Positions 22,790 to 48,055 of a DNA stretch of 64,000 bases are shown piece by piece. The stretch comes from a virus. Taxonomy: Duplodnaviria; Caudoviricetes. Within the stretch, counting starts at the first letter, position 1; each line of letters starts with the position of its first letter. The stretch lies in the IMG/VR virus record IMGVR_UViG_2974541498_000001, positions 72,609-136,608 of that record, one strand, 5' to 3'. The position numbers and the translations under genes are program-made. Below the pieces are notes generated by a model. It saw only the letters and a program-made list of their open reading frames with translations. It ran no database searches and had not been told where the DNA came from.

Positions 22790-24643
22790 ATGATGGCAAA
22801 ATATACGCCCGGAGATTTAGAGATATCTCCTTATTACGATAGATTTGATGACACTTCAAATATAACTTTTGTTGCTTTCGTAGCTAATAATATCCTTCAA
22901 GGATCAGAAATGAATGAGTTACAATCCATCATTAGTTATTATATGCAATCATTAGGTAATTCCATCATGAGCGATGGTGATAAACAAGCAGGAATGGCCT
23001 ATGTTCAAGATGGAACAAATATAACAATACAATCCGGGGAAGTTTATCTTGGAGGTAAAGTAAGACATTTCTTAGAGCAGACAGTTAAAATTACCGGTGT
23101 TGGTATTGAAAATATTGGAATAAAATTAAATACGGAGATTATTACTCCCCAAGAAGACTCTTCTTTGTTAAACCCAGCCATTGGCACTCCTGGGTATCAA
23201 TCACAAGGAGCTAATAGAATAAGAGAAACTGTTGAATTGGTAGCTAATGATTCTAGTGCCGTATCTATTTATACTTTCAAAGATGGTAAAATATATTATG
23301 TTCCAGAATCTACCCAACTAGCTAAAGTAAGCAACATGATGGCTAAACAAACATCTGAAATAGATGGAAACTTTAGAATTGGGTCATCTGGATTCCAAAT
23401 GTCTACGGTAGAAGACCCTAATGATAACAAAAAAGCCATTCTAAATATATCATCAGGGGTAGCCTATATCTTAGGTAAAAGAGTAAATAAAGCAGTTGCT
23501 ACTCAACTGTCTGTTGACCGGGCTATTAATACTAGTACAATCACTAATGAACAAAATACATTTGCGACTGGAACGTTAAAATATCCTCTGGGGAATTTCC
23601 CAGTTCAAAGTATATCATCAGTTACGGCAAATGTTCAGAAAACAATTGTTGTATCAAGAGGAACTTCTGATGTTGATTCTTTAGCAGATAAAAATGTTAT
23701 TTCTATTTCTAAAGTATACACAGAGGGTAGTAGTAGTGTTACCTATACAGAAAATACTGATTACAAGTTAATAAACCATCAAACAATTCAATGGATTTCT
23801 ACAGGAAGCTCACCTGCTAGTGGTACTAGTTATAAAGTCACATATGTATATAATAAGAGTCTTGACTCAACTAATGATTATGCGGTAACTACCGATGATA
23901 ATTCACTAATAACATCTATTGATTTCACTGGAAAAGGAATTGTGGGATCAGGAGATGCTACTGGTGGTGTTCTATTCAACGGTAGTATTATTTCTACAAC
24001 TTATGACTATTATCTTGCTCGAATAGATATTCTAACATTAAATGATAAAGGCGACTTTATTATCCACGTTGGGCAACCAAATGATGCGGATTCTGTAGTT
24101 CCTCCATTAATTAATGACGGTAATGTCCTAGAAATAGGAAGTATTGCATGGCTACCAAATTCATATAAATCTACTTGTAAGACATATGCTACTTCTAACT
24201 TAACTTTTAGAGATCTAACAATGCTACGGGATAGAGTTGATATTATAGAATTTAATGAAGCGCTTAATTCCCTAGATGATGTTGCTACCGCTAATTATGA
24301 TCCTACTCAATTAAGAGGGGTGTTCTCTGATGGGTTCATTTCATTAGATAAAGCAGATTATACAAATGATGACTATTCCGTTATGATGAATTTTGAAGAC
24401 GGAACTATTACCCTTCAATATTCTAGTAAAACAGAATTAGTTCCCGATATATTATCTGGGGAAAGCAATATTATCCTATCTGATAGTGGTAAGTTTGCGA
24501 CTGCGGCATATACAGAAGTCCCAGCTATATCCCAGCCAACAGCTACCAGCGCCATATTAATTAACGAATACTCATACTTCGGTAAAGAAGGGGTATTAAC
24601 ATTAAAGCCTTCATCAGATAATTGGGTAACTAATGCAAGCTAA
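22790..24643 (+). CDS. Adsorption-associated tail protein (DUF4815-type), N-terminal half
   Basis: SPYYDRFD, LQ.SE.NELQS, YYLARID, LRGVFSDGFISLDK motifs. Confidence 0.8.
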   Translation: MMAKYTPGDLEISPYYDRFDDTSNITFVAFVANNILQGSEMNELQSIISYYMQSLGNSIMSDGDKQAGMAYVQDGTNITIQSGEVYLGGKVRHFLEQTVKITGVGIENIGIKLNTEIITPQEDSSLLNPAIGTPGYQSQGANRIRETVELVANDSSAVSIYTFKDGKIYYVPESTQLAKVSNMMAKQTSEIDGNFRIGSSGFQMSTVEDPNDNKKAILNISSGVAYILGKRVNKAVATQLSVDRAINTSTITNEQNTFATGTLKYPLGNFPVQSISSVTANVQKTIVVSRGTSDVDSLADKNVISISKVYTEGSSSVTYTENTDYKLINHQTIQWISTGSSPASGTSYKVTYVYNKSLDSTNDYAVTTDDNSLITSIDFTGKGIVGSGDATGGVLFNGSIISTTYDYYLARIDILTLNDKGDFIIHVGQPNDADSVVPPLINDGNVLEIGSIAWLPNSYKSTCKTYATSNLTFRDLTMLRDRVDIIEFNEALNSLDDVATANYDPTQLRGVFSDGFISLDKADYTNDDYSVMMNFEDGTITLQYSSKTELVPDILSGESNIILSDSGKFATAAYTEVPAISQPTATSAILINEYSYFGKEGVLTLKPSSDNWVTNAS

Positions 24644-24654
24644 GGAGGATATTA

Positions 24655-26322
24655 ATGGCTTTTGATTTTTATAATGATATGATGGCTAAACAGGCCGATA
24701 TCACAATTAATACAGATAGATGGTGGAAACATGGTGGCACTGATAACTATGTTTTAAACAATACTACTTGGGATGCTTCTAGCTCTAAATACATTGGAAA
24801 TATGGGCAGGCAAAAAGGTAAGCATCAATTAAATGGTACGTATACGACATCGACAACAGTATCTGTGGCACACAACTATAGTTATACTACTATGGATCAG
24901 TTTATGCGAGTTAGAGATGTTGAATTTACTGCAACAGGATTAACTCCCTTAGCTACAGGATTTTATTTAACATTTAACGGGGTTAGAGTAACTATTACTC
25001 CATCTTCTGGATATAGCACAGACACTTCTGGTAAAGGAACCGTTACTACTGATTCTAATGGTGCTTTTTCTGGGAAATTCTCTGTTCCATCTAATGTTCC
25101 TGTAGGCACCGTAGAAACTATTTTTACAAATGATAAAGATAGCTGTGTTACAACTTATACAGCATCAGGTATGACACAACATACTGGGGTTTATTATACT
25201 GATGAAACATATTTCAACACACAATATGTTACTGCATACGTATCAGACCCAGTAGCAGAGACATTTCAATTACCACAGGACAGTTACGTAACTAGTTTTG
25301 ATATCCCATTTGGATCAGTAGACTTAACAGAACCAGTAAAGTTTCAACTTAGAGAAGTAAGCAATACTGGATATCCAACAAGTACAGTTTATGCTAATGT
25401 CACAGTTCCTTCGGAAAATATTAAAACATCACAAGATGGATCAGTACTGACGAATATAAAGTTGCCAACACCTTTCTTAGCTAATGCAAATGTTCAATAT
25501 GCCTTTGTTCTAGCTTCTCAGTCTGATAATTATACAGTATTTAGAGCTAAATTGGGTGAACTTTCTTTAGCAGATAAGAAAACTAAATGTAATTCTCAAC
25601 CATATGGTGATGGAGTAATGTTTACCTCTTCTAATTCTACCACATGGACCGCCGACCATACCGCCGATTTGAAGTTTAATATTAACATTGCCAAGTTTAA
25701 CCCAACAGCAGAAATTGTTTTTGATGTGCTGAAAAATATTAAAATGGATACATTCGTAGCCTTTTCAAATTTCTTAACACCAAACAACACTAACTGTACT
25801 TGGTACTATAGAATGATTGGTCAGGATGATTCTGGGGATGCAGATATTACTAAAAAGAATTGGCTACCATTAGCGCCTTTTGAAACAACTGAAGCAGATA
25901 CTATTATTACTCAGTTCCAATTAAAGGCGGATTTCACGGCAACTGATTTCAGTTCTCCTGTAATTAATATGGATAGTCTAAGTTTAGGACAATTCATTAC
26001 TGCACTTAAAGGTAACTATATTGGAAGGACAATAGATGCTACCCAAGCACCCTTTAATACTATTCACACAGTATTTAGTGCACAACTTCCTAATAATGCT
26101 GTAGTTACACCTTATTATAGTCTAGATGGTGGTAACACGTGGAAGCAATATACACAGGCTCCAACAACAACCACTCAGACTAATGGGTATGTTCAGTATG
26201 CTTATACAGAGAAGTTAAGTAATGATGCTACTAGCTTTAAGATTAAATTAACTTTATCTACACAAAGTAGTTTCTTAAAACCTTACGTAACAAACTTAAT
26301 GAATACCTTTAACAAGGAGTAA
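24655..26322 (+). CDS. Adsorption-associated tail protein (DUF4815-type), C-terminal half
   Basis: Own TAAGGAGG RBS; FMRVRDVEF, DPVAETF, GVMFTSSN..TWT....DLKF, YSLDGG.TW motifs. Confidence 0.78.
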   Translation: MAFDFYNDMMAKQADITINTDRWWKHGGTDNYVLNNTTWDASSSKYIGNMGRQKGKHQLNGTYTTSTTVSVAHNYSYTTMDQFMRVRDVEFTATGLTPLATGFYLTFNGVRVTITPSSGYSTDTSGKGTVTTDSNGAFSGKFSVPSNVPVGTVETIFTNDKDSCVTTYTASGMTQHTGVYYTDETYFNTQYVTAYVSDPVAETFQLPQDSYVTSFDIPFGSVDLTEPVKFQLREVSNTGYPTSTVYANVTVPSENIKTSQDGSVLTNIKLPTPFLANANVQYAFVLASQSDNYTVFRAKLGELSLADKKTKCNSQPYGDGVMFTSSNSTTWTADHTADLKFNINIAKFNPTAEIVFDVLKNIKMDTFVAFSNFLTPNNTNCTWYYRMIGQDDSGDADITKKNWLPLAPFETTEADTIITQFQLKADFTATDFSSPVINMDSLSLGQFITALKGNYIGRTIDATQAPFNTIHTVFSAQLPNNAVVTPYYSLDGGNTWKQYTQAPTTTTQTNGYVQYAYTEKLSNDATSFKIKLTLSTQSSFLKPYVTNLMNTFNKE

Positions 26323-26326
26323 TAAG

Positions 26327-26488
26327 ATGACTATACAAAAACCAATTACTAATTCTAAGGGTAGACAAATAGCTAAATTATTTGTTCCAACTAGAGGTGA
26401 ATTAACCTATATAAAGAATCAGGAAAAATTAGCTAAAGAGCTTAAAGAACTTGAAATATTAAAAAGAGATCTTAAAAAAAGTAAGTAG
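26327..26488 (+). CDS. Small conserved tail protein, 53 aa (not in ORF track)
   Basis: AAGGAG RBS; LFVPT..E plus coiled coil, like the small gene after the adsorption protein in Twort-like phages. Confidence 0.65.
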   Translation: MTIQKPITNSKGRQIAKLFVPTRGELTYIKNQEKLAKELKELEILKRDLKKSK

Positions 26489-26493
26489 TGACT

Positions 26494-26518
26494 AGCCGGT
26501 TAGAGATAATCGGCTTTT
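26494..26518 (+). terminator. Terminator between converging genes
   Basis: agccggtta-gaga-taatcggctttt. Confidence 0.7.
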
Positions 26519-27984
26519 CATGTACAATCTATTTGCAATCTGTGGAATAGTTCTGAGAATACAAATTCACTAACAATATCATAGTCGTTCTTTAATACGT
26601 TTTCTTCCACACTTAAAGAGAACCATAGTCCGTGGTCTTTTGCATTCTTTAAGAACATTAATAATTCAGAAGCCTTTGCCCGATTAATATCAATAAAAGA
26701 GTCAGTACCCATAATTTTTTCAGTTCTACGAAGAGTTCTCGTACTAATCTTTAATAGCCAAGCAATATGCTTTTTAGTACTATTAGATAATTCTGAAAAT
26801 AATCCTTTTAGCAAGCTTACTTGCTTTTCTTTCTCAACTTTACGAGTTTCTTTTAGTTGATCCATTGACATATGGCCTTTTTCATACCAACGATTCTTTT
26901 CCATTTCTCGCTTACGTTCTAACTTGATAGCATCTGAAGCAAAAGTTACTAGCTGTAATTGCTCTTCTTCTGTTATATCAAAATCTCGGATAATTGTCTT
27001 TACTTTTTCAGGCTTAACAATACCATCATCTTGATTATATAGAATCACATTTCTGTTTTCTTTATAATACTTTAAAAATAATCCAGCTTCTCTCCAGCAA
27101 CTCTTTAGAGTATTCTTAATTTCTGAAGTAGATAGACCCGGGACATACTTATCCTGAATCGTATTCATTTGATCTTCAAAGTCCCCTTGAGAAATATTCT
27201 TAGAAAGAAGATAATGAAATCCATACCAAAATAACCATTCATTTCGGTAACCAATCATTTTTCTAGTTCCCCGAATACTAGCGAGCTTTTCAAAGTCTTC
27301 TAATCTAGTCTTATTAGTCTTTACTCGATTACCAATAAGCTTAGTTTCTCTATCTTCTTCTGAAAAGTTATCTACAATGTAATCAGATAGTTGACTAAAA
27401 TCATATTCATTATTATTCCAAATCTCAAATTTAATCTTAGAATTATTACGAGAGTTTACACTACCGGGAACACGGAATAGACGAGTTACATCAGTACACT
27501 TAGGATCTGCTCCCAAGTCGCTTAACTTATTAACGAAATTTGCTGTAATATTTTTAGTTGCCCAAGCCATACTAGCAGGTAACCCATTTTTAATCGTCCA
27601 AATCAATTGAACACCATGACCAAACGTTACCATATTTGGCCCAGGAATATCTCCATTACCAATATGCTTAATAACTTCTTCAAACACTTCTGAAATAGCA
27701 TTTTCATTAGTCATAGATGAATATTTATCCATCTTATAGAAATCTAGATCAATACCAATATTTCTAATCTGAGCTAACTCACTAGACCGTCTTACTCCAT
27801 TTTTAAATGAATTCAAACTAATGTAAGTATCTGTATTATTATTTGATTTTTTAATTAGGTTATTGACTGTTTTTAATCGATAGTTATAATCGAATACTAC
27901 TCCATTATAACCAAGCTTAGTTAATACTACGTTCCCATAATCCTTCTTATTATTGAACCATAAGTCTTCCCAAGAGTTTAACAA
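26518..27984 (-). CDS. Plasmid-type replication initiator (AEP/primase-fold Rep with C-terminal HTH)
   Basis: YISLNSF, IGIDLDF (DxD), TFGHGVQLIW, LGADPKCTDVTRLFRVPGSVNSR, GYRNE.LF, HTH-like KKHIAWLLKISTRTLRR; AGGTGAG RBS. Confidence 0.75.
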   Translation of the reverse strand: MLNSWEDLWFNNKKDYGNVVLTKLGYNGVVFDYNYRLKTVNNLIKKSNNNTDTYISLNSFKNGVRRSSELAQIRNIGIDLDFYKMDKYSSMTNENAISEVFEEVIKHIGNGDIPGPNMVTFGHGVQLIWTIKNGLPASMAWATKNITANFVNKLSDLGADPKCTDVTRLFRVPGSVNSRNNSKIKFEIWNNNEYDFSQLSDYIVDNFSEEDRETKLIGNRVKTNKTRLEDFEKLASIRGTRKMIGYRNEWLFWYGFHYLLSKNISQGDFEDQMNTIQDKYVPGLSTSEIKNTLKSCWREAGLFLKYYKENRNVILYNQDDGIVKPEKVKTIIRDFDITEEEQLQLVTFASDAIKLERKREMEKNRWYEKGHMSMDQLKETRKVEKEKQVSLLKGLFSELSNSTKKHIAWLLKISTRTLRRTEKIMGTDSFIDINRAKASELLMFLKNAKDHGLWFSLSVEENVLKNDYDIVSEFVFSELFHRLQIDCT

Positions 27985-28021
27985 CTATCTCACCTGCCTA
28001 TTACTATTTTTATTTATATTT

Positions 28022-28050
28022 AGTATAGCACACTTATTTATATTCTACAA
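28022..28050 (-). promoter_or_regulatory. SigmaA-type promoter for rep
   Basis: TTGTAG-17 bp-TATACT with extended TG on the minus strand. Confidence 0.6.
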
Positions 28051-28265
28051 GCTATCTATATATTCTATAATACCTATTTTAATATTAATTAATAGCCTTA
28101 TATATCTAATATAATTTCTCTAAAAGTCGGAGGGGCTTAGCAATAATAGTGTTTGTCGCAAGACATGTGTCCGCTTTTAAGAGAAACCTTGATAGGCCGG
28201 TGTTTTGACCACTATGAAATATCTTAGAAGATTCTATAATAAATTATGGGATGTTAGTCTATTAA

Positions 28266-28294
28266 TTGACAATTGACTATTAATGTGATAGAAT
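28266..28294 (+). promoter_or_regulatory. SigmaA-type promoter for helicase operon
   Basis: TTGACA-17 bp-TAGAAT with TG extension. Confidence 0.75.
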
Positions 28295-28312
28295 ATAGTA
28301 AAAGTATAGAAG

Positions 28313-30586
28313 GTGAAGAACATTAGATTAGAAGTTTATCCAATGACAACGAAGTTAGTTGGTAGAAAAGAAGATTTAACTAAATATGCTGATCTAATTA
28401 GCGAAGATATAGATATTCCTGTTGATAACTATCAATTTAGTTTTTCTTATCAAAACTTTGGGGAAATACCTGTCAATCATTTTTATGATAAGAAAACTAA
28501 TACTTTTCCTACTGGTTTACTAGAGAGTGTAAAAGGGTTATTAAAAGCTAATAACTTAGAATATGAGGTAGTTGATAAGCGTCCTAAAGGATTATTTACT
28601 AGTGATGATTTATTAACGTCTCCTATAACTCTGGGAGGTCGGACAACAGAAGGAAAGTATGCCTATCAAATGGATGCTATTAATTCTATTATTAAATCTA
28701 ATGGGAAAGGTATACTAAACCTAAGTGTTGGTAGCGGCAAGTGCCTGCCGGTTGATACGTATTTATTAACAGATACAGGATATAAAACCATTAGGGATAT
28801 TTTAAATAATGAAGGACTAGAAGAAAGTAGCAATGAATCTATTCATACTGCCAAGAATACTATTTTAGTTAATCGCTATGGGGAAAATGAAAAAGTAGAT
28901 AAGATTACAATTAATGGTATTAAGCCAATTAATAAGGTTATTCTTAATTCTGGTATTTATGAAGAAATGACACCCAATCATCCCCTATTAGAATTTCGTC
29001 CTAGCGCTGATGGATTTGTTTGGGTTAAGTCTAGTGATATAAAAGTTGGAGATATTATAGTTACTAGGGATCATTGTAGAAATTTTGGGACTTTTAAAGA
29101 AGATAATAAAGAAACTATTTTAAAAAGCGATAAGATAAAGGAAAAATATAATCTTTCAACCGCCTATGATTTAGTTTTTGATGAAGTATCTTCAATTGAA
29201 TTTGTTGGATATCAAAGAACCTATGATGTAAGTATGCCAAAGACTCATAGCTTTATTGCTAATGGCATTGTAAATCATAATACTCTTTTATTCTCTGCAT
29301 TAGCTAAGATTGCTTTACCTCATCTAAATGATGGAGAACATATTCTGTTTTTTACTAGTTCTAAGGAAATATTTAAGCAAACGTTGAAAGAGCTAGAAGA
29401 TATGACCGGTCAAGAAATTGGTTATTATGCTTCTAAAAAGTATAAAGATCGTCCTATTATGGTAGTCATGTTGCAATCTGCTTATGCGTTATATAAAATT
29501 GATCCATATAAAGGATTAAAGTTAACTCCTAAAGATAGGGAGTTAAGAAAGATAAAGGATGTTATTCTACCGAAGATATCTAATGGAAATAGTATAAATG
29601 CTTTGAAAGCTTATTTAAGATTTATGAAGCTTGATACAAAAGTTGCTAAGAATTTCAAAGAAATGCTAGAAAATGAAATAGATACTTCCGGTAGTGATAA
29701 GGAGTTAGTAGATAAGCTGACAGCCTATGCTAATGAATTTGATGAGAGAATAGAAGATAAAGCAAAAGACTCTAAAGAAAAAAAGGATTTTATTGTAAAT
29801 CTACTAAATAGTGCCGTTTTTATCTGTAATGATGAATGTCAGCATTTGACAGCAGAATCCTATTATAAAGTAATATTAGCTTGTAAAAATGCTTTAGTAT
29901 GCGTAGGACTATCTGGAAGCTTAGACCCCAAAAACAAGCTATTGCAACAAAGGGTTAAAGCAATTTTTGAAAAGATTACTTACCGAGTAAAGTTAGTAGA
30001 TAATGTTAAGAGAGGCGTAAGTGTTAAGCCAATAATTCATATGTTATCTGTTAATTCGCCAAAGAATATTGCTAGTTTAAGAGAATGGCCGGAAGTTTAT
30101 GCTACGGGAATAGTTCATAATGAATATAGGAATAATCTAATTGCTAAACTCGTAGCCGAAAAAGCCTATCCTTCTGGTAGAGTTACTTTAATAATTGTTA
30201 ATCAAATAGATCATGGTAAGGATCTTCTAAAAAGATTAACTGATCTAGGAGTACCTGCGGTGTTTATTTATGGTCAATCAGAAGATGAATATAGAAGAAA
30301 GTCTATTCAAGCTATGAGAGATAATAAAGTAAAAGTTGCAATTGCCACATCTATTCTAGATGAAGGTGTTGACGTAAAAACTATTAAAGTTTTGATATTA
30401 GCGGCGGCAGGTAAATCTTATCGAACAACTATTCAAAGGATTGGGCGTAGTGTTCGTTTAGGTGAATTTAATGATGCACATATCTTTGACTTCTTTGATA
30501 ATCAAAACTATATGTTATCACGTCAATCGTTAGAGAGAATGAACATATATAAGGAGCAACAATTAGAAATTAAAGAAAACAAGTAA
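28313..30586 (+). CDS. SF2 (UvsW-like) DNA helicase containing an intein
   Basis: Walker A GSGK/T split by intein; DECQH, LSGS, ILDEGVD, QRIGR motifs. Confidence 0.9.
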   Translation: MKNIRLEVYPMTTKLVGRKEDLTKYADLISEDIDIPVDNYQFSFSYQNFGEIPVNHFYDKKTNTFPTGLLESVKGLLKANNLEYEVVDKRPKGLFTSDDLLTSPITLGGRTTEGKYAYQMDAINSIIKSNGKGILNLSVGSGKCLPVDTYLLTDTGYKTIRDILNNEGLEESSNESIHTAKNTILVNRYGENEKVDKITINGIKPINKVILNSGIYEEMTPNHPLLEFRPSADGFVWVKSSDIKVGDIIVTRDHCRNFGTFKEDNKETILKSDKIKEKYNLSTAYDLVFDEVSSIEFVGYQRTYDVSMPKTHSFIANGIVNHNTLLFSALAKIALPHLNDGEHILFFTSSKEIFKQTLKELEDMTGQEIGYYASKKYKDRPIMVVMLQSAYALYKIDPYKGLKLTPKDRELRKIKDVILPKISNGNSINALKAYLRFMKLDTKVAKNFKEMLENEIDTSGSDKELVDKLTAYANEFDERIEDKAKDSKEKKDFIVNLLNSAVFICNDECQHLTAESYYKVILACKNALVCVGLSGSLDPKNKLLQQRVKAIFEKITYRVKLVDNVKRGVSVKPIIHMLSVNSPKNIASLREWPEVYATGIVHNEYRNNLIAKLVAEKAYPSGRVTLIIVNQIDHGKDLLKRLTDLGVPAVFIYGQSEDEYRRKSIQAMRDNKVKVAIATSILDEGVDVKTIKVLILAAAGKSYRTTIQRIGRSVRLGEFNDAHIFDFFDNQNYMLSRQSLERMNIYKEQQLEIKENK
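28742..29281 (+). mobile_element. Mini-intein, 180 aa, no homing endonuclease
   Basis: Starts CLPVDT after GSGK; TPNHP block B; ends TYDVSMPKTHSFIANGIVNHN followed by Thr; no LAGLIDADG motif. Confidence 0.92.
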
Positions 30587-30591
30587 TTATA

Positions 30592-30621
30592 GCGGGTAGC
30601 CCTTGATAAGCTACCCGTTTT
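30592..30621 (+). terminator. Rho-independent terminator
   Basis: gcgggtagc...gctacccgtttt. Confidence 0.75.
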
Positions 30622-30654
30622 GTATTATACTAATAAAAGGAAGGGGACAAACAT

Positions 30655-31470
30655 ATGGGTTTAGATAGTTTTTTAGAGGATATGCCAAAATCGGGCTTCA
30701 GCCCCTTCTTACGGCCTATTAAAGATAATAGGTATAATGACATTAAAAAGGATGTAGAGGCCCTCTATCGTCCTGTATTAGACGTTAAACGGTATCCTAG
30801 GGAGTTACCCCTGATTTACATGTTTGATAATGTAATTAACTTGAGAAAACGTAATAACGGAATCTGGTATAACAAAAAAGTTTTATATCAGAGCTGGGAT
30901 AACTTTAGTAAATTGAATATTTTATTAGAAAATTACAATATTAAACCAAGTAATTTTTTATCTAATTTATTTTGGATGGCAGAGAATAAACAATATCCTG
31001 CAACCTATAATAGAAAATTAGGGTATTACGTACCTGATATTACTATGTGGGAAAAGGTTTTAGAAAATATGTCAAGATATAAGAAAAGCGTATTTTTTAA
31101 CTCTCTTAATAAGTTCACTATAATCAGCGGATGGGAAGATGTTTATTTTGAGGAATCTTTTAACATAAATACCTATGATGAAAATATATCTTTATTTGTT
31201 AATAGGATGACATCTTTAAATGATTATAAAATGTTTGATAGAATTCCAGATAGATCCTTAAATGAAGATGAGAAAAAATATATTTTATTATACTTGTGGA
31301 ATTATAGTGATTCTATGAAAATAACTAGCAATTATTTTAGGGATTTATCGGGTATTTATGGTACTGGAAAGCAAGAAACCTTATTAGGATACATCTTAGG
31401 ATATCATATTAACTTAGAAAATATAAATTTAAACAGTATAGAGGATGATATTAATGGAAGAGACAGTTAA
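30655..31470 (+). CDS. Hypothetical protein (possible helicase loader by position)
   Basis: Between the two helicases; no recognisable motif. Confidence 0.4.
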   Translation: MGLDSFLEDMPKSGFSPFLRPIKDNRYNDIKKDVEALYRPVLDVKRYPRELPLIYMFDNVINLRKRNNGIWYNKKVLYQSWDNFSKLNILLENYNIKPSNFLSNLFWMAENKQYPATYNRKLGYYVPDITMWEKVLENMSRYKKSVFFNSLNKFTIISGWEDVYFEESFNINTYDENISLFVNRMTSLNDYKMFDRIPDRSLNEDEKKYILLYLWNYSDSMKITSNYFRDLSGIYGTGKQETLLGYILGYHINLENINLNSIEDDINGRDS

Positions 31471-32935
31471 GCAAGTTATCTATCGAAGTTTTATGGATAA
31501 TACTTATGCAAAAAGAATTAGCTCATTGCCTTTAACAGAAGATTATTTCTCTAAAGAAGTTATTCCTATTGTTAAGGTTATTAATTCACATTATCGAAAA
31601 GAAGATACACCTATTTCTGGTGAAGCAATTAATCTTGATCTAGAAAAGTCATTATCAGATAATAAAAATTATAGTGAAGAAGATATTAAAGAAATTATGA
31701 GTAAAGTTTCTGATATATCTTTGCTATCAACCTATAAAAATTATAATAATGACCAGCCAATTAAAGAGAATACAGATTCTTGGTTAAGAAAAAAGCTTGC
31801 CATGAATACTTTAACAAGAACATTATCTAATCGGTCATTAGATGATAAAGATACTATTGATTATCTTGTTAATGACTTAATGGATATTTCTTCTATTGGT
31901 GAGGACTCTGAGATTATTCATGCACAAGATCTAGTAGGTGAAGAGAATGTACAGCCTATTCATGATACTATTGAAGACAGTGTTAAAGGTTCTATTTCTC
32001 TTGGTATACCAGAGTTAGATGCGGTAATGTCTGGGGGGTTAAAGCGTAAGGAACTTGGAATGGTTGTTGCTAAAAGTGGTGGTGGTAAAACAACCTTCTT
32101 ACTCAACTTATCCTGTAATCTAATAGCTGATAAGAGGAATGTTGTTTACTTAGAATTAGAAGAAAACGATGGGACTATGTTTGCTAAAGGATTATCTATG
32201 TTAAATAGAAAAAATGTTAAAGATCTTTTTACTGACAATGGGGAGGGATTAAATGAATTTGCTTTTAATGACCTTATGAAAAATATAAAAAAAGGTAGTG
32301 ATCTTGGAAGATTAGGCCAATTTACATTATGGACGGCAGAATCTTACACAGTAACTTTATCTGCTATTGAAAAGAAGTTGCAGAAGTATTATCAGGACAA
32401 AGGATTTTACCCAGATATGCTAATAATTGACTATCCGGAGCTATTAAAAAATGATTATATTAATAGTGGTGTCCGAGAAGAACATGCGACAGAAATGCTT
32501 ACTCATTCTATTCGTGATTTAGCAAAAAAATATAATATGATTTCTTTCATTGCTAGTCAAGCGAACAGATTCGCTTATAGTCAAGTTACTATAAAAGAAG
32601 ATGGAATAGAAGGAGCTAAGGCAAAGATTAACCCAACAGAATTATCTATTAGTGTTAATCATAATGCAGAAGAAAGAGCCGCCGGATTCACTAGATTGTA
32701 TATTATGAAGGCACGTAATCGAGACGAAAATTTCCCTGATGATGGTATAATTAGATTAAAGACGGATAAATCGAGTGGTAGATTAAATTCAGAAAGTGCT
32801 GAAGAAAAGAAAGAACATCAGAAAATAATTGATGAGATGGGAACTGCCTTTGACACAAACTCAGCTAAGACTAATAACAAAATGAGTTATGAACTAACTG
32901 AGCAGCAATTAGATAAGAAGAGGAATAAATTGTGA
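31445..32935 (+). CDS. DnaB-like replicative helicase
   Basis: GGLKRKELG...AKSGGGKT, YLELEE, IIDY, ASQANR, KARNR. Confidence 0.9.
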   Translation: MILMEETVKQVIYRSFMDNTYAKRISSLPLTEDYFSKEVIPIVKVINSHYRKEDTPISGEAINLDLEKSLSDNKNYSEEDIKEIMSKVSDISLLSTYKNYNNDQPIKENTDSWLRKKLAMNTLTRTLSNRSLDDKDTIDYLVNDLMDISSIGEDSEIIHAQDLVGEENVQPIHDTIEDSVKGSISLGIPELDAVMSGGLKRKELGMVVAKSGGGKTTFLLNLSCNLIADKRNVVYLELEENDGTMFAKGLSMLNRKNVKDLFTDNGEGLNEFAFNDLMKNIKKGSDLGRLGQFTLWTAESYTVTLSAIEKKLQKYYQDKGFYPDMLIIDYPELLKNDYINSGVREEHATEMLTHSIRDLAKKYNMISFIASQANRFAYSQVTIKEDGIEGAKAKINPTELSISVNHNAEERAAGFTRLYIMKARNRDENFPDDGIIRLKTDKSSGRLNSESAEEKKEHQKIIDEMGTAFDTNSAKTNNKMSYELTEQQLDKKRNKL

Positions 32936-33954
32936 GAAAATATATAACATCCCCAAATAGTAATCAATTCTCTTATGATGGCGCTGTGAAGCCTAGGCTA
33001 GATACTGCGAATACTCTAGTTAGCTTAGGGTATGAAAAGATAAATTTTAATATGTATGGTAGAATAGAAACAGGATCAAATGAATATAAAGAAATAACGA
33101 AACAGTTGGATTCCTTAAAAACTGGGGATTTAGTTATTCAGCAAGTTCCTAGCTATTGTAGCAATGAATTTGATAAGTATCTTAGTAGATATATTATAGA
33201 AAAGGGTGCCTATTCAGTTGCTTTAGTACATGATGTAGATACTCTTAGAGGATTCTATCCTAACTTTGATTCAGAAAGGATAGTATTTAATTCTTATGAC
33301 TTGTTAGTAGTTGCTAGTGATAAGCTAAAGAAATATTTAATAGATTCTGGGATAACTACTAAAATAATTATTCGAGGTCCTTGGGACTACCTGCAAAATT
33401 TACCATATAGAAACCATAAGATAATTAATAATATCTATTATGCGGGTAACTTATCTAAGAGAAAAGCAGGATTCTTAGAAACTTTTAATAAAAATACTGG
33501 TCTAGTTGTAACAGTTTGTGGTAATATAAATAATAGTAAGGATTATATTGATACAAGTTTGGTAGATTATTTAGGCCCGGTTAATCCTAATAGTATCTCG
33601 TTCTCTGCTGGATGGGGATTAATTTGGGATAATGAAAATGATGATTCCGATAATTACTACCATACCTATCAGGAGTACAATTGGCCGGCTAAGCTTTCTG
33701 TCTATTTAAGAAGTGGAATCCCTGTTATTGTGTCAAAAAAGGCGCAGACTTACTCATATATTAAAGATAATCATTTAGGAATTGGGATAGATGATATTAA
33801 AGATATTCCTATTTGTTTAAATAAGTTATCTGAAAATGATAAGATGCTTATTATGAGTAGTTGTTTTCAAGAGGCTAATAAAATAGGGAATGGTTATTAT
33901 GCAAAACAAATGTCAAACAATATATTAAAAGAACTAGATATTGAAGGGAACTGA
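32932..33954 (+). CDS. GT-B glycosyltransferase, Gtf3/WbbI-like
   Basis: KPR.D, HDV..LR, WDYL, YAGNL, GLIWD, Y..YNWPAKLSVYL.SG.PVIV motifs of the Gtf3/beta-1,6-galactofuranosyltransferase group. Confidence 0.8.
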   Translation: MRKYITSPNSNQFSYDGAVKPRLDTANTLVSLGYEKINFNMYGRIETGSNEYKEITKQLDSLKTGDLVIQQVPSYCSNEFDKYLSRYIIEKGAYSVALVHDVDTLRGFYPNFDSERIVFNSYDLLVVASDKLKKYLIDSGITTKIIIRGPWDYLQNLPYRNHKIINNIYYAGNLSKRKAGFLETFNKNTGLVVTVCGNINNSKDYIDTSLVDYLGPVNPNSISFSAGWGLIWDNENDDSDNYYHTYQEYNWPAKLSVYLRSGIPVIVSKKAQTYSYIKDNHLGIGIDDIKDIPICLNKLSENDKMLIMSSCFQEANKIGNGYYAKQMSNNILKELDIEGN

Positions 33955-38240: not shown

Positions 38241-38825
38241 ATGAGAACAATATTTGATGAAAATTTAGGAAAACTATACGTACTTAATAAGTATAACTAC
38301 AAAGAAAAACTATTAAAATTTAATAAGGACAGTTTGATTAGATGGTATCCGTTTAACAATAACTACTCCTATTATTATTCAGAGGTACATGATAGCGTTT
38401 ATTTGAGTAAGGACAGTCGGCTAGGAAGCTTTGATAACTATGGAATATCTAGTGTAGGAAGGCATGATGATTCCGGAATTCTAATCCATAACTCTTTAGA
38501 TTTACATTGCAATCAAGTTGAGAAAGATAATTACAATCTATGTGATAAAATAAATGAACTGGGATATGCTAGTTTTAATAATTCTAGTAATAGTCTAGAA
38601 GGCATAACGGATCAGATAAAAGATACTCTTGATGGAATTACTAAGCTATCAGTAGATATTACTAAGAGATATGAAGACCGACATCATGTAAATCCAGATA
38701 TTATTAATAATTATTTTGGGATTAGCTTAGGTGAGACTACTAGTGAAGAAGATTATGATTATTTCCTATTAGGTTGCTCTTATACTATGCTTAAACTGAA
38801 AAAAGATATTTTAGAGAACAGGTGA
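38241..38825 (+). CDS. Hypothetical protein
   Basis: ORF with RBS in operon; WYP motif. Confidence 0.5.
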   Translation: MRTIFDENLGKLYVLNKYNYKEKLLKFNKDSLIRWYPFNNNYSYYYSEVHDSVYLSKDSRLGSFDNYGISSVGRHDDSGILIHNSLDLHCNQVEKDNYNLCDKINELGYASFNNSSNSLEGITDQIKDTLDGITKLSVDITKRYEDRHHVNPDIINNYFGISLGETTSEEDYDYFLLGCSYTMLKLKKDILENR

Positions 38826-38829
38826 AATT

Positions 38830-39879
38830 ATGGACTACTTAGAAAACGCATTAACCGATAACTTAGGTGATCCTTTAAGAATAGAGGATGAATTAAGATA
38901 TAATTGTCCTTTTTGCGATGATGGGCGTAATCGGCACAAGCTTTATGTTTCTACTGATAAGCGGGTATGGAACTGTTTTAATTGTGGCCGTCATGGGTAT
39001 ATTACTAGTCTATTAGCTAAGATATATGATGTGGATTACAAAGAAGCCAATAATATCGCTAACAGCTTGGGAATAAGTTCATTGTCTATTAGTCCAAATT
39101 CTGAAATATCTGATGAAGAGAAACTATTAGTATATGTTAAAAATACTACGGTTAATGAGAATAAGAAAGATGATGATAATTTGGAGCTTAAACCAGCTCC
39201 TTTTATTCATGGCTATAAGTCTTTGAAAGACAACTATATGTTACCCGAAGCTAAGCCCTTTCTAAAATATATTAATAAACGGGGATTTACATCAGATGAT
39301 ATTGTTAAACATGGAATAGGATACGTTACTGATGGATATTTTAGAAAGCCAGATAGTGACATTATTAGTGTAAACAATAGTCTGGTTTTTCTTACCTATG
39401 GACTAGATGGAAAATATATTTATTGGAATACAAGATCAATTGAGCCTAATCCTTATGTAAAATCTATTAATGCCCCGATATATGATGGCTGTTATTCTAA
39501 AAAGACAGCTATATTTAATTTTAATAGTGCAATAAAAGAAAAGAATATTGTTATTACGGAAGGTGTTCCTGATGCTATTACGTTAGGAAACTCAGGAGTT
39601 GGAACTTTTGGTAAACAAGTTACTTCAGAACAAATTAAGCTAATTATTGATAACGTTTTTAAAGATCAGAATATTTATGTTATGCTAGATATGGATGCTA
39701 AGCCTTATATTGAAAGACTAGGAAGAAAGCTATCAAATTATCATAAGAATACTTATATGGTTATTAATCCAACTGGTAAGGATGCTAACAGCCTTGGTAG
39801 AGATAAGGCTTGGGAAATAATTAATGCTAATTCCGTAAAAGTTGATGACTATGGTATTATTAAGCTAAAGCTATCGTAA
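38830..39879 (+). CDS. dnaG: DNA primase
   Basis: CPFC..H....C..C zinc finger; TOPRIM EGVPDA, LDMDA, KDAN. Confidence 0.9.
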   Translation: MDYLENALTDNLGDPLRIEDELRYNCPFCDDGRNRHKLYVSTDKRVWNCFNCGRHGYITSLLAKIYDVDYKEANNIANSLGISSLSISPNSEISDEEKLLVYVKNTTVNENKKDDDNLELKPAPFIHGYKSLKDNYMLPEAKPFLKYINKRGFTSDDIVKHGIGYVTDGYFRKPDSDIISVNNSLVFLTYGLDGKYIYWNTRSIEPNPYVKSINAPIYDGCYSKKTAIFNFNSAIKEKNIVITEGVPDAITLGNSGVGTFGKQVTSEQIKLIIDNVFKDQNIYVMLDMDAKPYIERLGRKLSNYHKNTYMVINPTGKDANSLGRDKAWEIINANSVKVDDYGIIKLKLS

Positions 39880-44971: not shown

Positions 44972-47900
44972 ATGAAAATAAAAGCACTGATTTTAAATGA
45001 GTTTGTTAGAGCAGACTATTTTGTTGGAGATAGCTTGGATTATTTTAATTCTAAGACAGGTAGTAAGTTCAAACAAGTTTTTAATAAGTATGGGCTAAAG
45101 GAGGGAGTAGACTACGATTGTAATTACTTTATTAGAGATATTCCCAAAGCCGCTAAAGTTTATAATAATCGAGTAGTTTCTTATAAATCGCCAACTAGCG
45201 CTCAACTAAAGAAAGCTAATGCTGAAATTAAAGAAAAAATAAAAGACTATGATATTATTTTAGTTACTGGAAAGTATGGATTAAGCTATTTTTATCCTGA
45301 GTATATTATTAATGGTAAACGAAAAGTATTACCAAAAATGACTAAGCTATTATCTCATGATAAAGTAGTTAATATTGATGGTAAAGATCATTTAATTCTC
45401 CCAATATTTTCACAAGAATTAGTAGATATGGATAATGAAAAAGCCTATCCACGGAACCTTGTTATTAGAAAATTAGCTTTATATCTAAAAGGCTACTGGA
45501 ATATTAAAACTTCTAGAGTAGGTAATTATAAGATTGCTGATACAGTAGATAAAGTAAAAGCTGTTTTTAATGCCGCTAAAAAGCATGTAACTGCTTGGGA
45601 TACAGAAGATAATGGATTTGATGCCCATAGAAAGAATAGTCGTATTTTATGTATGACATTATCCTTTAAACCGGGAACAGGTTATTATATTCCGTTAGCA
45701 CATCGTCAATCCCCGTTCTCTAAAGATGAATTAGTAGAGGTAAAAAAGTGTATTAAAGGATTTCTAGAAGGACCTAACATTAAAGTAGCACATAACTCCC
45801 GTTTCGATATTGACTGGATGATATATCGAGGAATTGCGGGCCATGTTCATAATATTAGAGATACTAAGATTGGCTATTGGCTATTAGTAGATCAGCGAGT
45901 ATCTGAAAGTCTTAGATTAACGGACTTAGCTTGGCAAGTAACTCCTATTGGTGGTTATGATGATCCTTTAGAAAGTTATAAGGACTGGATTACTAGTACG
46001 TTAGCTTCTCTATGCTCCCAGATGCTAAAGAAAAAGTATAGAAAAACTCATTCTAATTTAAAAGAATTTGAAAAAGGGACTGAAAAGTTAGATGAAGAGG
46101 ATAAGAACTTTCTACTAGAAAACATTATTCCGGAAGAATTTAGTAAAGAGGATAATCCCTTGTTAAAGTTATTATCTAAAGCAAGTAGAGAACAGCATAT
46201 TAAACTAAATCAGAAAATATTTAATGAAGATTATATGGATGATGAAGTTTTAAATGATGCAGTTAATTCAGCTATTTCTTTAGCTAATAAGTGGCGAGTA
46301 GATAATAAAATAAAGTCTCACTTTAATTATGATATTTTCCCACTAAAAGTTATGCTTAATTATTCTGTTGGTGATGCTGATGCCTGTTTGCAAATATACC
46401 GTTGGGAAGAAATGGAAGTCAATAAGTCTACAGATAAAATTAAATTTTTATTTGAAAAGTTCTATCCTGAATTTGTTTATACTTTAGCTAGAATGCAAAG
46501 TAATGGCGCACATATTAATTTGGATTACACCAAGGAACTTAAAAAAGCATATGCTGATGAGTCCGATAGGATATATAATGAGCTATTAAAGTTTTCAGAT
46601 GTTAAACAGTTAATAGATATTAAACAGGAACTTTATTTAAAAGGATTAGCTGAGAAAGCAAAACCAGTTAAAGAAAGAGATAAGGATATCTATAAGTATT
46701 ATAATAGATATAAGGATGAGGAAGATAGAAAGTTTAAGCCTAATGCAGATAAGAAGACCTTGTTATTAGAGGTTATGGGAGTATCTATTCCAGACGAGGA
46801 CAAGTTTAAGACTAATAAGGGTGAAATAAGCGTTGGATCGGAAACGATATCTTATCTATTAGATACATTACCAAAGGATTCAGATTCTTATGAAATTGTT
46901 AATCTATTAGATAAGTATGCACAATCTTCCAAGATTCAGACTACTTATACTGACACTATGTTAGATATTGTATCTGATGTTGATGATAGTGTTCATGGAA
47001 CATTTAATGAAACCGGAACATCTACTAGTCGATTAAGCAGTAGTCATCCTAATATGCAAAATATCCCTTCTCCCCATTCTAATAATATTCATGAATTTGG
47101 CAATAGGTATCCAATTAAGCGCCAGTATAATTCAAGGTTTAAGAATGGGATTATCTTTAACTGTGACTATTCAAACCTAGAATTAAGAATATTGGGATTA
47201 ATCAGTGGTGATGCGGGAATGTATCATACTTTCGTTACTGGTAAGGATATTCATAAAGCCACTGCCGCGGATGCTTTTAAAACCCCATTAGATGAAGTTA
47301 CTAAAAGCCAACGACAGGCCGCTAAGAAAGTTGGGTTCGGTATCGTATATGGAATTAGTAAATATGGTTTAGCAGTTCAATTAGGTGTTACTCCAGATGA
47401 AGCACAAGACTTTATTGACAAGTACCTAGATTCTAAGCCTGCGGTTGAAAAGTTAATATCCGATGTTCATAAGGCGGTTAAGCAGAATGGCTATGTTGAA
47501 TTATTATCTGGATTCAGACGACAATTACCTGGTATTTTTTCTACAGATAAAGCAAGTGTTAGTTCAGCTTTAAGAGAATCTGTTAACACTTTGATTCAAG
47601 GGTCCGGATCATATCTAACAAACAGTAGCTTATTATATATTCAGAATTATTTAGAAAGCAATAATAAGAACTCTAAGTTAGCTATTACTGTTCATGATTC
47701 TATCATGGGAGATGTTCCTGCTGATGAAATATCTGAGGTATTGCCACAAGTTCTTAGAATTATGACTAATCTTCCTTATGACTGGTTAAAAATAGAGCAT
47801 GACGGTAATATTGTTAAATACCCAATTAATGCAGAAATGACTATTGGATATAACTATAGTGATCAGGTTGATTTCGATTTAGAAGATTATAATACTTTTA

Positions 47901-48055
47901 AATCCCCTAATGGATATATTGATTATTATATGGAAATAAGTAATTTAGAAGCTAAACATGATAGTAAGGACTTATCTGATGATGATTATAGTAGACTTTT
48001 AGAAGAAATAAAGGAATCTAAGAATAAATATCAAGATATTCCTTTACAAGAATAA
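44972..48055 (+). CDS. polA: Family A DNA polymerase with N-terminal UDG-like domain and 3'-5' exonuclease
   Basis: WDTE, HNSRFD, Y...D exo motifs; TSRLSSSHPNMQNIP, DYSNLELR, RQAAKKVGFGIVYG, NTLIQG, TVHDS. Confidence 0.95.
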   Translation: MKIKALILNEFVRADYFVGDSLDYFNSKTGSKFKQVFNKYGLKEGVDYDCNYFIRDIPKAAKVYNNRVVSYKSPTSAQLKKANAEIKEKIKDYDIILVTGKYGLSYFYPEYIINGKRKVLPKMTKLLSHDKVVNIDGKDHLILPIFSQELVDMDNEKAYPRNLVIRKLALYLKGYWNIKTSRVGNYKIADTVDKVKAVFNAAKKHVTAWDTEDNGFDAHRKNSRILCMTLSFKPGTGYYIPLAHRQSPFSKDELVEVKKCIKGFLEGPNIKVAHNSRFDIDWMIYRGIAGHVHNIRDTKIGYWLLVDQRVSESLRLTDLAWQVTPIGGYDDPLESYKDWITSTLASLCSQMLKKKYRKTHSNLKEFEKGTEKLDEEDKNFLLENIIPEEFSKEDNPLLKLLSKASREQHIKLNQKIFNEDYMDDEVLNDAVNSAISLANKWRVDNKIKSHFNYDIFPLKVMLNYSVGDADACLQIYRWEEMEVNKSTDKIKFLFEKFYPEFVYTLARMQSNGAHINLDYTKELKKAYADESDRIYNELLKFSDVKQLIDIKQELYLKGLAEKAKPVKERDKDIYKYYNRYKDEEDRKFKPNADKKTLLLEVMGVSIPDEDKFKTNKGEISVGSETISYLLDTLPKDSDSYEIVNLLDKYAQSSKIQTTYTDTMLDIVSDVDDSVHGTFNETGTSTSRLSSSHPNMQNIPSPHSNNIHEFGNRYPIKRQYNSRFKNGIIFNCDYSNLELRILGLISGDAGMYHTFVTGKDIHKATAADAFKTPLDEVTKSQRQAAKKVGFGIVYGISKYGLAVQLGVTPDEAQDFIDKYLDSKPAVEKLISDVHKAVKQNGYVELLSGFRRQLPGIFSTDKASVSSALRESVNTLIQGSGSYLTNSSLLYIQNYLESNNKNSKLAITVHDSIMGDVPADEISEVLPQVLRIMTNLPYDWLKIEHDGNIVKYPINAEMTIGYNYSDQVDFDLEDYNTFKSPNGYIDYYMEISNLEAKHDSKDLSDDDYSRLLEEIKESKNKYQDIPLQE

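Follow-up and report, generated by a model that had tools for sequence, protein, structure and literature searches.

The 64,000-nt stretch of virus DNA analysed here (the window; positions 72,609 to 136,608 of IMG/VR record IMGVR_UViG_2974541498_000001) forms the right-hand end of a virus record that totals 136,608 bp; our whole-genome searches cover all 136.6 kb. It derives from a large lytic Levilactobacillus brevis phage of the Tybeckvirus lineage of Herelleviridae; its nearest match in GenBank, with 86% nucleotide identity over 24000-31000, is Levilactobacillus phage ENFP1 (also Tybeckvirus). We describe a plasmid-type replication gene of this phage, rep, together with a short conserved block of DNA upstream of it. 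Over about 70 kb every gene except rep lies on the plus strand, and rep fills the gap separating two transcription units, the structural operon and the replication operon. The features around this junction are as follows (ORF, open reading frame; SF2, superfamily 2):

22790-24643 and 24655-26322, plus strand: adsorption-associated tail protein (phrog_877), two ORFs
26327-26488: 53-aa ORF (phrog_1074), between the split adsorption protein and rep
26494-26515: stem-loop terminator, a 9-pair stem and then TTTT on the plus strand, which ends the structural operon
26518-27984, minus strand: rep, 488 aa
28022-28050, minus strand: candidate sigma-A-type rep promoter, TTGTAG (28050-28045), 17 nt, TG-n-TATACT (28027-28022), with extended -10
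28060-28099: AT-rich tract, 85% A+T (40-nt bins), which separates the rep promoter from the conserved block
28131-28179: 49-nt non-coding block, near-invariant in a comparison of the window phage with ENFP1; candidate origin or site of Rep binding
28266-28294, plus strand: strong divergent promoter at the head of the helicase/replication operon, TTGACA, 17 nt, TG-n-TAGAAT (11/12 match, with TG)
28313-30586, plus strand: SF2 helicase, the next gene after the rep intergenic region

The original prediction, made from the DNA letters and their reading frames, had described an intact 488-aa reverse-strand gene with its own ribosome-binding site (RBS) and promoter, and this description holds. rep starts with a TTG codon, and the RBS AGGTGA (27995-27990, minus strand), five nt ahead of the start, is kept in ENFP1 and in IMG/VR fragments. 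Of the span then assigned to the element, 26518-28312, the gene takes up the part to 27984; the remainder (27985-28312) is a 328-bp intergenic region upstream of rep and is non-coding. The candidate rep promoter stays below the cut-off of a consensus scanner because its -35 element matches at just 3/6 positions. Despite divergent surrounding bases, ENFP1 retains the -35 TTGT, the 17-nt spacing and TGnTATACT; it also keeps the promoter of the helicase operon, as TTGACA-17-TATAAT. At the opposite end of the gene from its promoter, the terminator lies 3 bases past the rep stop codon.

Between the window phage and ENFP1, rep shows a nonsynonymous divergence (dN) of 0.041 and a synonymous divergence (dS) of 0.95, hence a dN/dS of 0.043. 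The flanking genes gave dS values of 0.3-1.2 and dN/dS values of 0.02-0.09, and the constraint on rep equals or exceeds that on the DnaB-like helicase (dN/dS 0.069). The low dN/dS, combined with a dS like that of the neighbours, points to co-divergence with them under strong purifying selection: rep is a long-standing resident of this lineage and is strongly constrained.

The encoded protein, Rep, can be divided into four parts (AEP, archaeo-eukaryotic primase; HTH, helix-turn-helix):

residues ~1-205: AEP primase domain
residues ~209-310: helical PriCT-1-like domain
residues ~378-430: winged HTH
residues 431-488: lineage-specific C-terminal tail

Rep matches PHROG 9432, "replication protein", at 2e-57. 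In Pfam, both RepB_primase and PriCT_1 were sub-threshold, the latter on residues 245-299 with an E of 0.047 and 13.7 bits, under the 21.1-bit cut-off; NCBIfam gave no match, and no helicase domain was found in the 488 residues by any of these family searches (Pfam, PHROG, NCBIfam). An exhaustive phmmer search with Rep returned 1,354 representatives at E <= 1e-3. Motif invariance was scored on a 71-sequence alignment, which was also fed to AlphaFold2. Invariant across the 71 homologues are D79, D81, G124, D160 and R171, with R168 nearly so. Motif I reads IGIDLD (D79, D81), motif II GHGVQ (G124, Q126) and motifs III/IV LGAD (D160)...R168..R171-VPGS. The glutamine of motif II, Q126, is invariant in the 8 closest homologues, and Gln also stands in the consensus of the 71 sequences. 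The motif IV arginine would be either R168 or R171, judging from the alignment.

The AlphaFold2 model of Rep has a mean pLDDT (predicted local distance difference test) of 92. In VIA-align comparisons it matched the AEP domain of the cyanophage S-2L primase-polymerase (PrimPol; 6ZP9, Z 15.7, root-mean-square deviation (rmsd) 3.3, 173 aligned), the catalytic domain of RSF1010 RepB' (3H25, Z 13.6, rmsd 3.3, 172 aligned) and archaeal and eukaryotic PriS (Z 10-11). Foldseek placed S-2L PrimPol and RepB' on top (E 6e-6 and 7e-5, respectively), and a BFVD search gave phage AEP primases. When full-length RepB' is used, the structural alignment reaches Rep residue 311 (rmsd 12); the model shows a bundle of helices here. 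The Rep profile matches HTH chains at profile positions ~390-440, with winged-HTH fold matches at Z ~7. The AEP fold of Rep is confirmed at the level of the predicted structure, as had been suggested earlier from the motifs together with a C-terminal HTH, and the conserved residues suggest that Rep functions as a primase.

The presence of PrimPols (S-2L, CAPP) among the structural neighbours raises the question whether Rep is mainly a primase-polymerase employed in repriming, damage tolerance or counter-defence rather than an origin-specific initiator. AEP PrimPols do serve diverse repair and repriming roles. We nevertheless regard such a function as improbable: an architecture of primase, PriCT-1 and HTH, together with sequence-specific DNA binding, marks plasmid initiators (ColE2 Rep, RepE/RepS, PrimHYQ; PMC5862659), a unique conserved DNA block adjoins rep, and defence-system models gave no meaningful match.

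The closest characterised homologue is the Rep protein of Bacillus phage vB_BceS-IEBH (IEBH; ACH42334.1, "potential replication protein"), which is collinear with Rep over residues 1-423 and shares 30% identity over 455 columns (BLASTP E 3e-59; tblastn 5e-50). IEBH Rep has been assigned to the PrimHYQ family in the PrimPol-PV1 supergroup of AEPs (Kazlauskas et al. 2018, PMC5862659). Members of this family uniformly consist of primase, PriCT-1 and HTH, lack a helicase, carry His, Tyr or Gln in motif II and have a conserved motif IV Arg (PMC5862659). Rep shares with them the AEP fold, the metal-ligand motifs I and III, a Gln motif II, a motif IV Arg and the C-terminal HTH, in addition to its homology to IEBH Rep. 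IEBH is reported to persist in the form of a circular plasmid, and a fragment of about 2 kb with its rep ORF self-replicates in B. thuringiensis (PMC4113786). Furthermore, 564 plasmid records match Rep by tblastn, the best being Bacillus, Geobacillus and Clostridium plasmids; homologues are the candidate Rep proteins of small Firmicute plasmids, and in the 5.4-kb Clostridium septicum plasmid pCSWW106 the homologue is the only large ORF. The collinearity with IEBH Rep, the known IEBH replicon and the plasmid homologues together make the designation "plasmid-type AEP Rep" well supported. With the IEBH protein, small Firmicute plasmids and the RepB' fold all matching, a homology to plasmid Rep proteins, as originally proposed, is borne out. 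Rep is a member of a described AEP family, PrimHYQ, in an unusual host genome.

IEBH Rep resembles Rep in its motifs I-IV, including the motif II Gln, in the absence of a helicase domain and in its domain order, with PriCT-1 between primase and HTH where Rep has a PriCT-1-like region. Rep differs in carrying a tail of about 58 aa after the HTH, which is common only to its closest metagenomic relatives. The genomes differ as well: IEBH is a 53-kb temperate siphovirus that exists as a circular plasmid, whereas the window phage is a 136.6-kb virulent herellevirus with its own helicases, DnaG primase and polymerase. Two further systems are instructive. ColE2-P9 Rep, a plasmid-specific AEP primase-initiator, recognises a short origin present in single copy, melts it with no need for an NTPase and synthesises a primer that is extended by a family A polymerase (PMC5862659). 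It resembles Rep in its domain logic (primase, PriCT-1, HTH) and may serve as a mechanistic model for Rep, but belongs to a different AEP family, gave no direct sequence match and needs host Pol I, where the phage brings its own Pol A. RSF1010 RepB' (3H20/3H25) is the best solved structure spanning the catalytic and helical domains (Z 13.3-13.6) and also has Gln in motif II; in contrast to Rep, it primes at ssi sites with a separate RepA helicase and RepC initiator and has no C-terminal HTH, and its identity to Rep is 11-12%.

Among 50,697 phage records, rep was found only in ENFP1 and in a set of Bacillus cereus-group siphoviruses; it was not found in Lb. brevis phage 3-521. Relatives with 37-50% identity to Rep (P0003-P0006, P0013, P0016) reside on contigs of up to 95 kb, and scans of IMG/VR, GTDB genomes and JGI metagenomes gave only near-identical fragments or relatives with at most 37% identity. 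On PLSDB plasmids no homologue exceeded 34% identity, and in 401 sampled Bacilli genomes none exceeded 33%. The 90%-identity cluster of rep has 53 members, phage 521B among them. As the 521B homologue is already annotated "replication protein", the gene call as such is not new; what we add is the absence of the phrog_1098 protein (see below) from both Tybeckvirus genomes searched and the near-invariant, unique 49-nt block upstream of rep.

Most phage homologues of Rep are found in temperate B. cereus-group phages of about 50 kb and in phage-plasmid-like contigs, and IEBH Rep, the closest characterised one, is that of a plasmid prophage. Rep might accordingly allow the window phage to persist like a plasmid, in a carrier state or as a phage-plasmid, as the original prediction had considered. 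The genome does not bear this out, and we rate such an episomal state as very improbable. In the whole 136.6 kb there is no match to Phage_integrase or ParB_N and no genuine match to ParA, ParM-like and actin-like families not having been searched; the par genes that had been suggested as a check were thus not recovered within this scope. The AAA_31 family matched only the P-loop of the DnaB-like helicase, below the cut-off, and HTH_3 only a 93-aa ORF, sub-threshold. In IEBH, by contrast, rep has an actin-like partition gene and several repressors as neighbours, and nothing comparable was found here. Finally, the relatives of the phage are described as virulent: ENFP1 forms clear plaques and has terminal repeats of 6,973 bp (PMC9302086), and the related isolates reported in 2019 were predicted to be obligately virulent (PMC6563214).

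The best candidate for a DNA element that belongs to Rep is the 49-nt block. When the 328-bp intergenic region was compared with ENFP1 in 40-nt bins, bin 28140-28179 was 98% identical, whereas the bins on either side reached 57-72%. The window contains a single copy of the core of the block, none of its 10-mers recurs elsewhere in the genome, and within IMG/VR the block was found only in the same lineage. Both the block and the AT-rich tract at 28060-28099, which may be an unwinding element, sit between the two divergent promoters. We also considered whether the block encodes a structured RNA. The hairpin with 17-nt arms that surrounds it in the window is not kept in ENFP1, and RNA-folding z-scores there are about 0; it is therefore the sequence and not an RNA structure that is conserved. 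Rfam yielded nothing on the intergenic region but one chance-level match (E 0.59). A repeated phage promoter was ruled out as well, because the core 10-mers are unique in the genome. A repeat search revealed no iteron array by rep; an 11-nt repeat, ATTCTATAATA, flanks the block in the window but is not kept in ENFP1. GC skew, proposed earlier as a check, tracks the coding strand and gives no origin signal. By its sequence features, the block would fit a protein-binding origin site.

The phage encodes its own replication set, namely a DnaG-type primase, two helicases, a family A polymerase and recombination genes (RecA-like, SbcCD-like), in agreement with the earlier statement that it has its own primase, helicase and polymerase. 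The members of the replication region that matter here, in addition to the SF2 helicase, are:

30655-31470, plus strand: 271-aa ORF, between the SF2 helicase and the DnaB-like helicase
38830-39879: DnaG-type primase
44972-48055: family A polymerase

In other herelleviruses, the position between the SF2 and DnaB-like helicases is taken by a protein of 430-570 aa that belongs to phrog_1098; this holds for EF24C, A511, a Kayvirus, a Bacillus Nitunavirus, Brochothrix A9 and 3-521. Across herellevirus genera, 681 phage records contain a member of the family, with annotations such as "putative Rep protein", "replication protein" and "HTH DNA binding protein". At ~1e-5, the N-terminal winged HTH (wHTH) of these proteins additionally hits two PHROGs, "replication initiation O-like" and "DnaD-like helicase loader". 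The phrog_1098 proteins (A511 gp112, EF24C ORF044, the Kayvirus 'replication protein'), encoded in the same replication module within the same virus family, are presumed to be origin-binding or initiator-like. They are of a fold class unrelated to that of Rep, with an N-terminal wHTH like that of O-like/DnaD-like initiators and no primase domain. In the genomes of the window phage and of ENFP1, both of the Tybeckvirus genomes searched, phrog_1098 gave no match at E <= 0.1, while EF24C (2e-160) and 3-521 (2e-15) did match. Members of the O-like and DnaD-like initiator families (phrog_186, 270, 678) were likewise not found in the whole genome. With these families missing, the AEP Rep is the only recognisable candidate for an origin-binding protein, which motivates the proposal that it has displaced the phrog_1098 protein.

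The phrog_1098 slot is occupied by the 271-aa ORF, whose homologues are restricted to this phage lineage. It had no match in Pfam, PHROG or PADLOC. An hhalign comparison with phrog_1098 members covered only 29 columns (E 0.011, probability 3.8%), located on the motif best conserved in phrog_1098; its offset might suit a remnant without about the N-terminal 150 aa. The AlphaFold2 model of the ORF was unusable (pLDDT 40), and a protein atlas search returned nothing.

Taking these observations together, we think it rather probable that Rep is an origin-specific PrimHYQ initiator-primase which starts phage replication and was acquired by the Tybeckvirus lineage from a Firmicute pool of plasmids or plasmid prophages. 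Of the earlier idea of a captured plasmid replicon that serves as initiator, the plasmid-type Rep stands, and the initiator role is the best reading of it; both this role in phage replication and the identity of the origin are what we infer. According to our proposal, host RNA polymerase would transcribe rep from its own sigma-A-type promoter, independent of the flanking phage operons. Rep would then bind a cognate site near its gene, the best candidate being the 28131-28179 block by the 85% A+T tract, and its PriCT-1-like/HTH module would open the duplex, on the precedent of ColE2 Rep. The primer made by Rep would be extended by the phage family A polymerase, the phage helicases would take over unwinding, and recombination-dependent replication, involving the RecA-like and SbcCD-like genes, would follow. 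In this scheme, Rep would substitute for the wHTH 'Rep' (phrog_1098) whose gene lies between the two helicase genes in other herelleviruses.

More tentatively, and with less confidence than we place in the initiator function, we propose that the lineage has lost phrog_1098, otherwise almost universal among the Herelleviridae searched, leaving at most the 271-aa remnant, so that replication would now be started by the plasmid-derived AEP initiator-primase at its own origin, and that a rep-plus-block cassette of 1.8-2.1 kb may constitute a portable minimal replicon for Lactobacillaceae. It is this possible displacement of the herellevirus wHTH Rep that merits testing. How replication starts in Herelleviridae (SPO1/Twort-like phages, used in biocontrol and therapy) is poorly defined, and a lineage without phrog_1098, but with a plasmid-type initiator-primase and a compact candidate origin, offers a simple experimental handle on origin choice. 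If true, the case would be an instance of an initiator exchanged between large virulent phages and plasmids or phage-plasmids; if active in Levilactobacillus, the small rep-ori cassette could serve as a cloning replicon.

Several points weigh against an initiator role of Rep and the displacement of phrog_1098. The conventional replication set is complete, so an extra initiator may not be needed, and large lytic phages can initiate replication by transcription- or recombination-dependent routes. The 271-aa ORF might be a diverged, still working remnant of phrog_1098, and the initiator role of phrog_1098 is itself suggested by annotation. The complementary distribution of rep and phrog_1098 rests on one lineage, represented by the genome studied here and ENFP1. 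The primase function is deduced only from conserved residues. Also, one low-depth contig from an RNA library (X16) spans 27848-28193 and thereby crosses the 49-nt block, and the contigs from RNA libraries discussed below give neither strand nor level, DNA carry-over being possible.

The setting of the gene bears on a further explanation. rep lies between the adsorption gene and the helicase as first described, with the 53-aa ORF intervening on the adsorption side. The claim that this is the usual tail-fibre locus has to be abandoned: in Enterococcus phage EF24C, only a small ORF separates the adsorption protein, a single ORF there, from the helicase, and in Lb. brevis phage 3-521 the same junction is occupied by a holin and a lysin. 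It is thus a variable inter-operon junction. Such a position is typical of a moron or an independently acquired cassette, and as all conventional replication genes are present, rep and an adjacent cis site might form an accessory or selfish replicon cassette that confers a non-essential advantage, normal initiation being independent of Rep. The benefit might be a faster early phase of replication thanks to an extra origin, or the ability to interfere with, or exploit, resident host plasmids or satellites whose Reps are related. We consider this unlikely, though it is a more serious contender than either the PrimPol function or the episomal state. The dN/dS of 0.043 and a dS near that of the core neighbours speak for long residence and a strongly selected function, and the genome has no other recognisable initiator. 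Moreover, with no close homologue on plasmids or in Bacilli at the identity levels given above, no partner element is in sight. Should rep prove dispensable, it would be an ordinary acquired accessory gene.

rep is covered by contigs from four RNA libraries in three studies. In one of these runs, X18, contig depth was 1056 for the structural genes, 225 and 80 for rep, 6-10 for the intergenic stretch 27816-28417 and 75-397 for the helicase. These uneven depths are a weak hint of RNA, which they fit better than carried-over DNA. The stretch 26300-28400 was found in 20 public runs from 11 studies, mainly food-fermentation metagenomes; 13 runs hold at least half of the sampled words, again mostly food-fermentation metagenomes, plus one chicken-gut run. 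The phage lineage thus seems to be common in fermented foods, beyond wastewater.

Some observations concern the neighbouring genes. The phrog_877 adsorption protein is one protein of about 1,150 aa in EF24C, but is represented by ORFs of 617 and 555 aa in the window phage and ENFP1; in Lb. brevis phage 3-521 there are two paralogues, both full-length at about 1,400 aa. In run X18, the contig of a related strain omits 36 nt at 24660-24697, just inside the second adsorption ORF.

On the other side of rep, the SF2 helicase (28313-30586) holds a mini-intein directly after the Walker A lysine (GSGK/C...VNHN/T). Pfam Intein_splicing matches its residues 152-323 at 1.7e-16, and the protein has 757 aa as compared to 567 aa in the ENFP1 orthologue, which is without the insert. 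Two further ORFs lie downstream in the replication region:

32932-33954, plus strand: 340-aa ORF, between the DnaB-like helicase and a deoxynucleoside kinase
38241-38825, plus strand: G1 gp67 homologue, N-terminal domain match (1e-10)

The start of the 340-aa ORF overlaps the helicase stop codon; it has no PHROG match, and in Pfam matches ILEI at a sub-threshold level only. The homologue of gp67, the anti-sigma factor of Twort-like phages, directly precedes the DnaG-type primase, an arrangement that is the same in EF24C.

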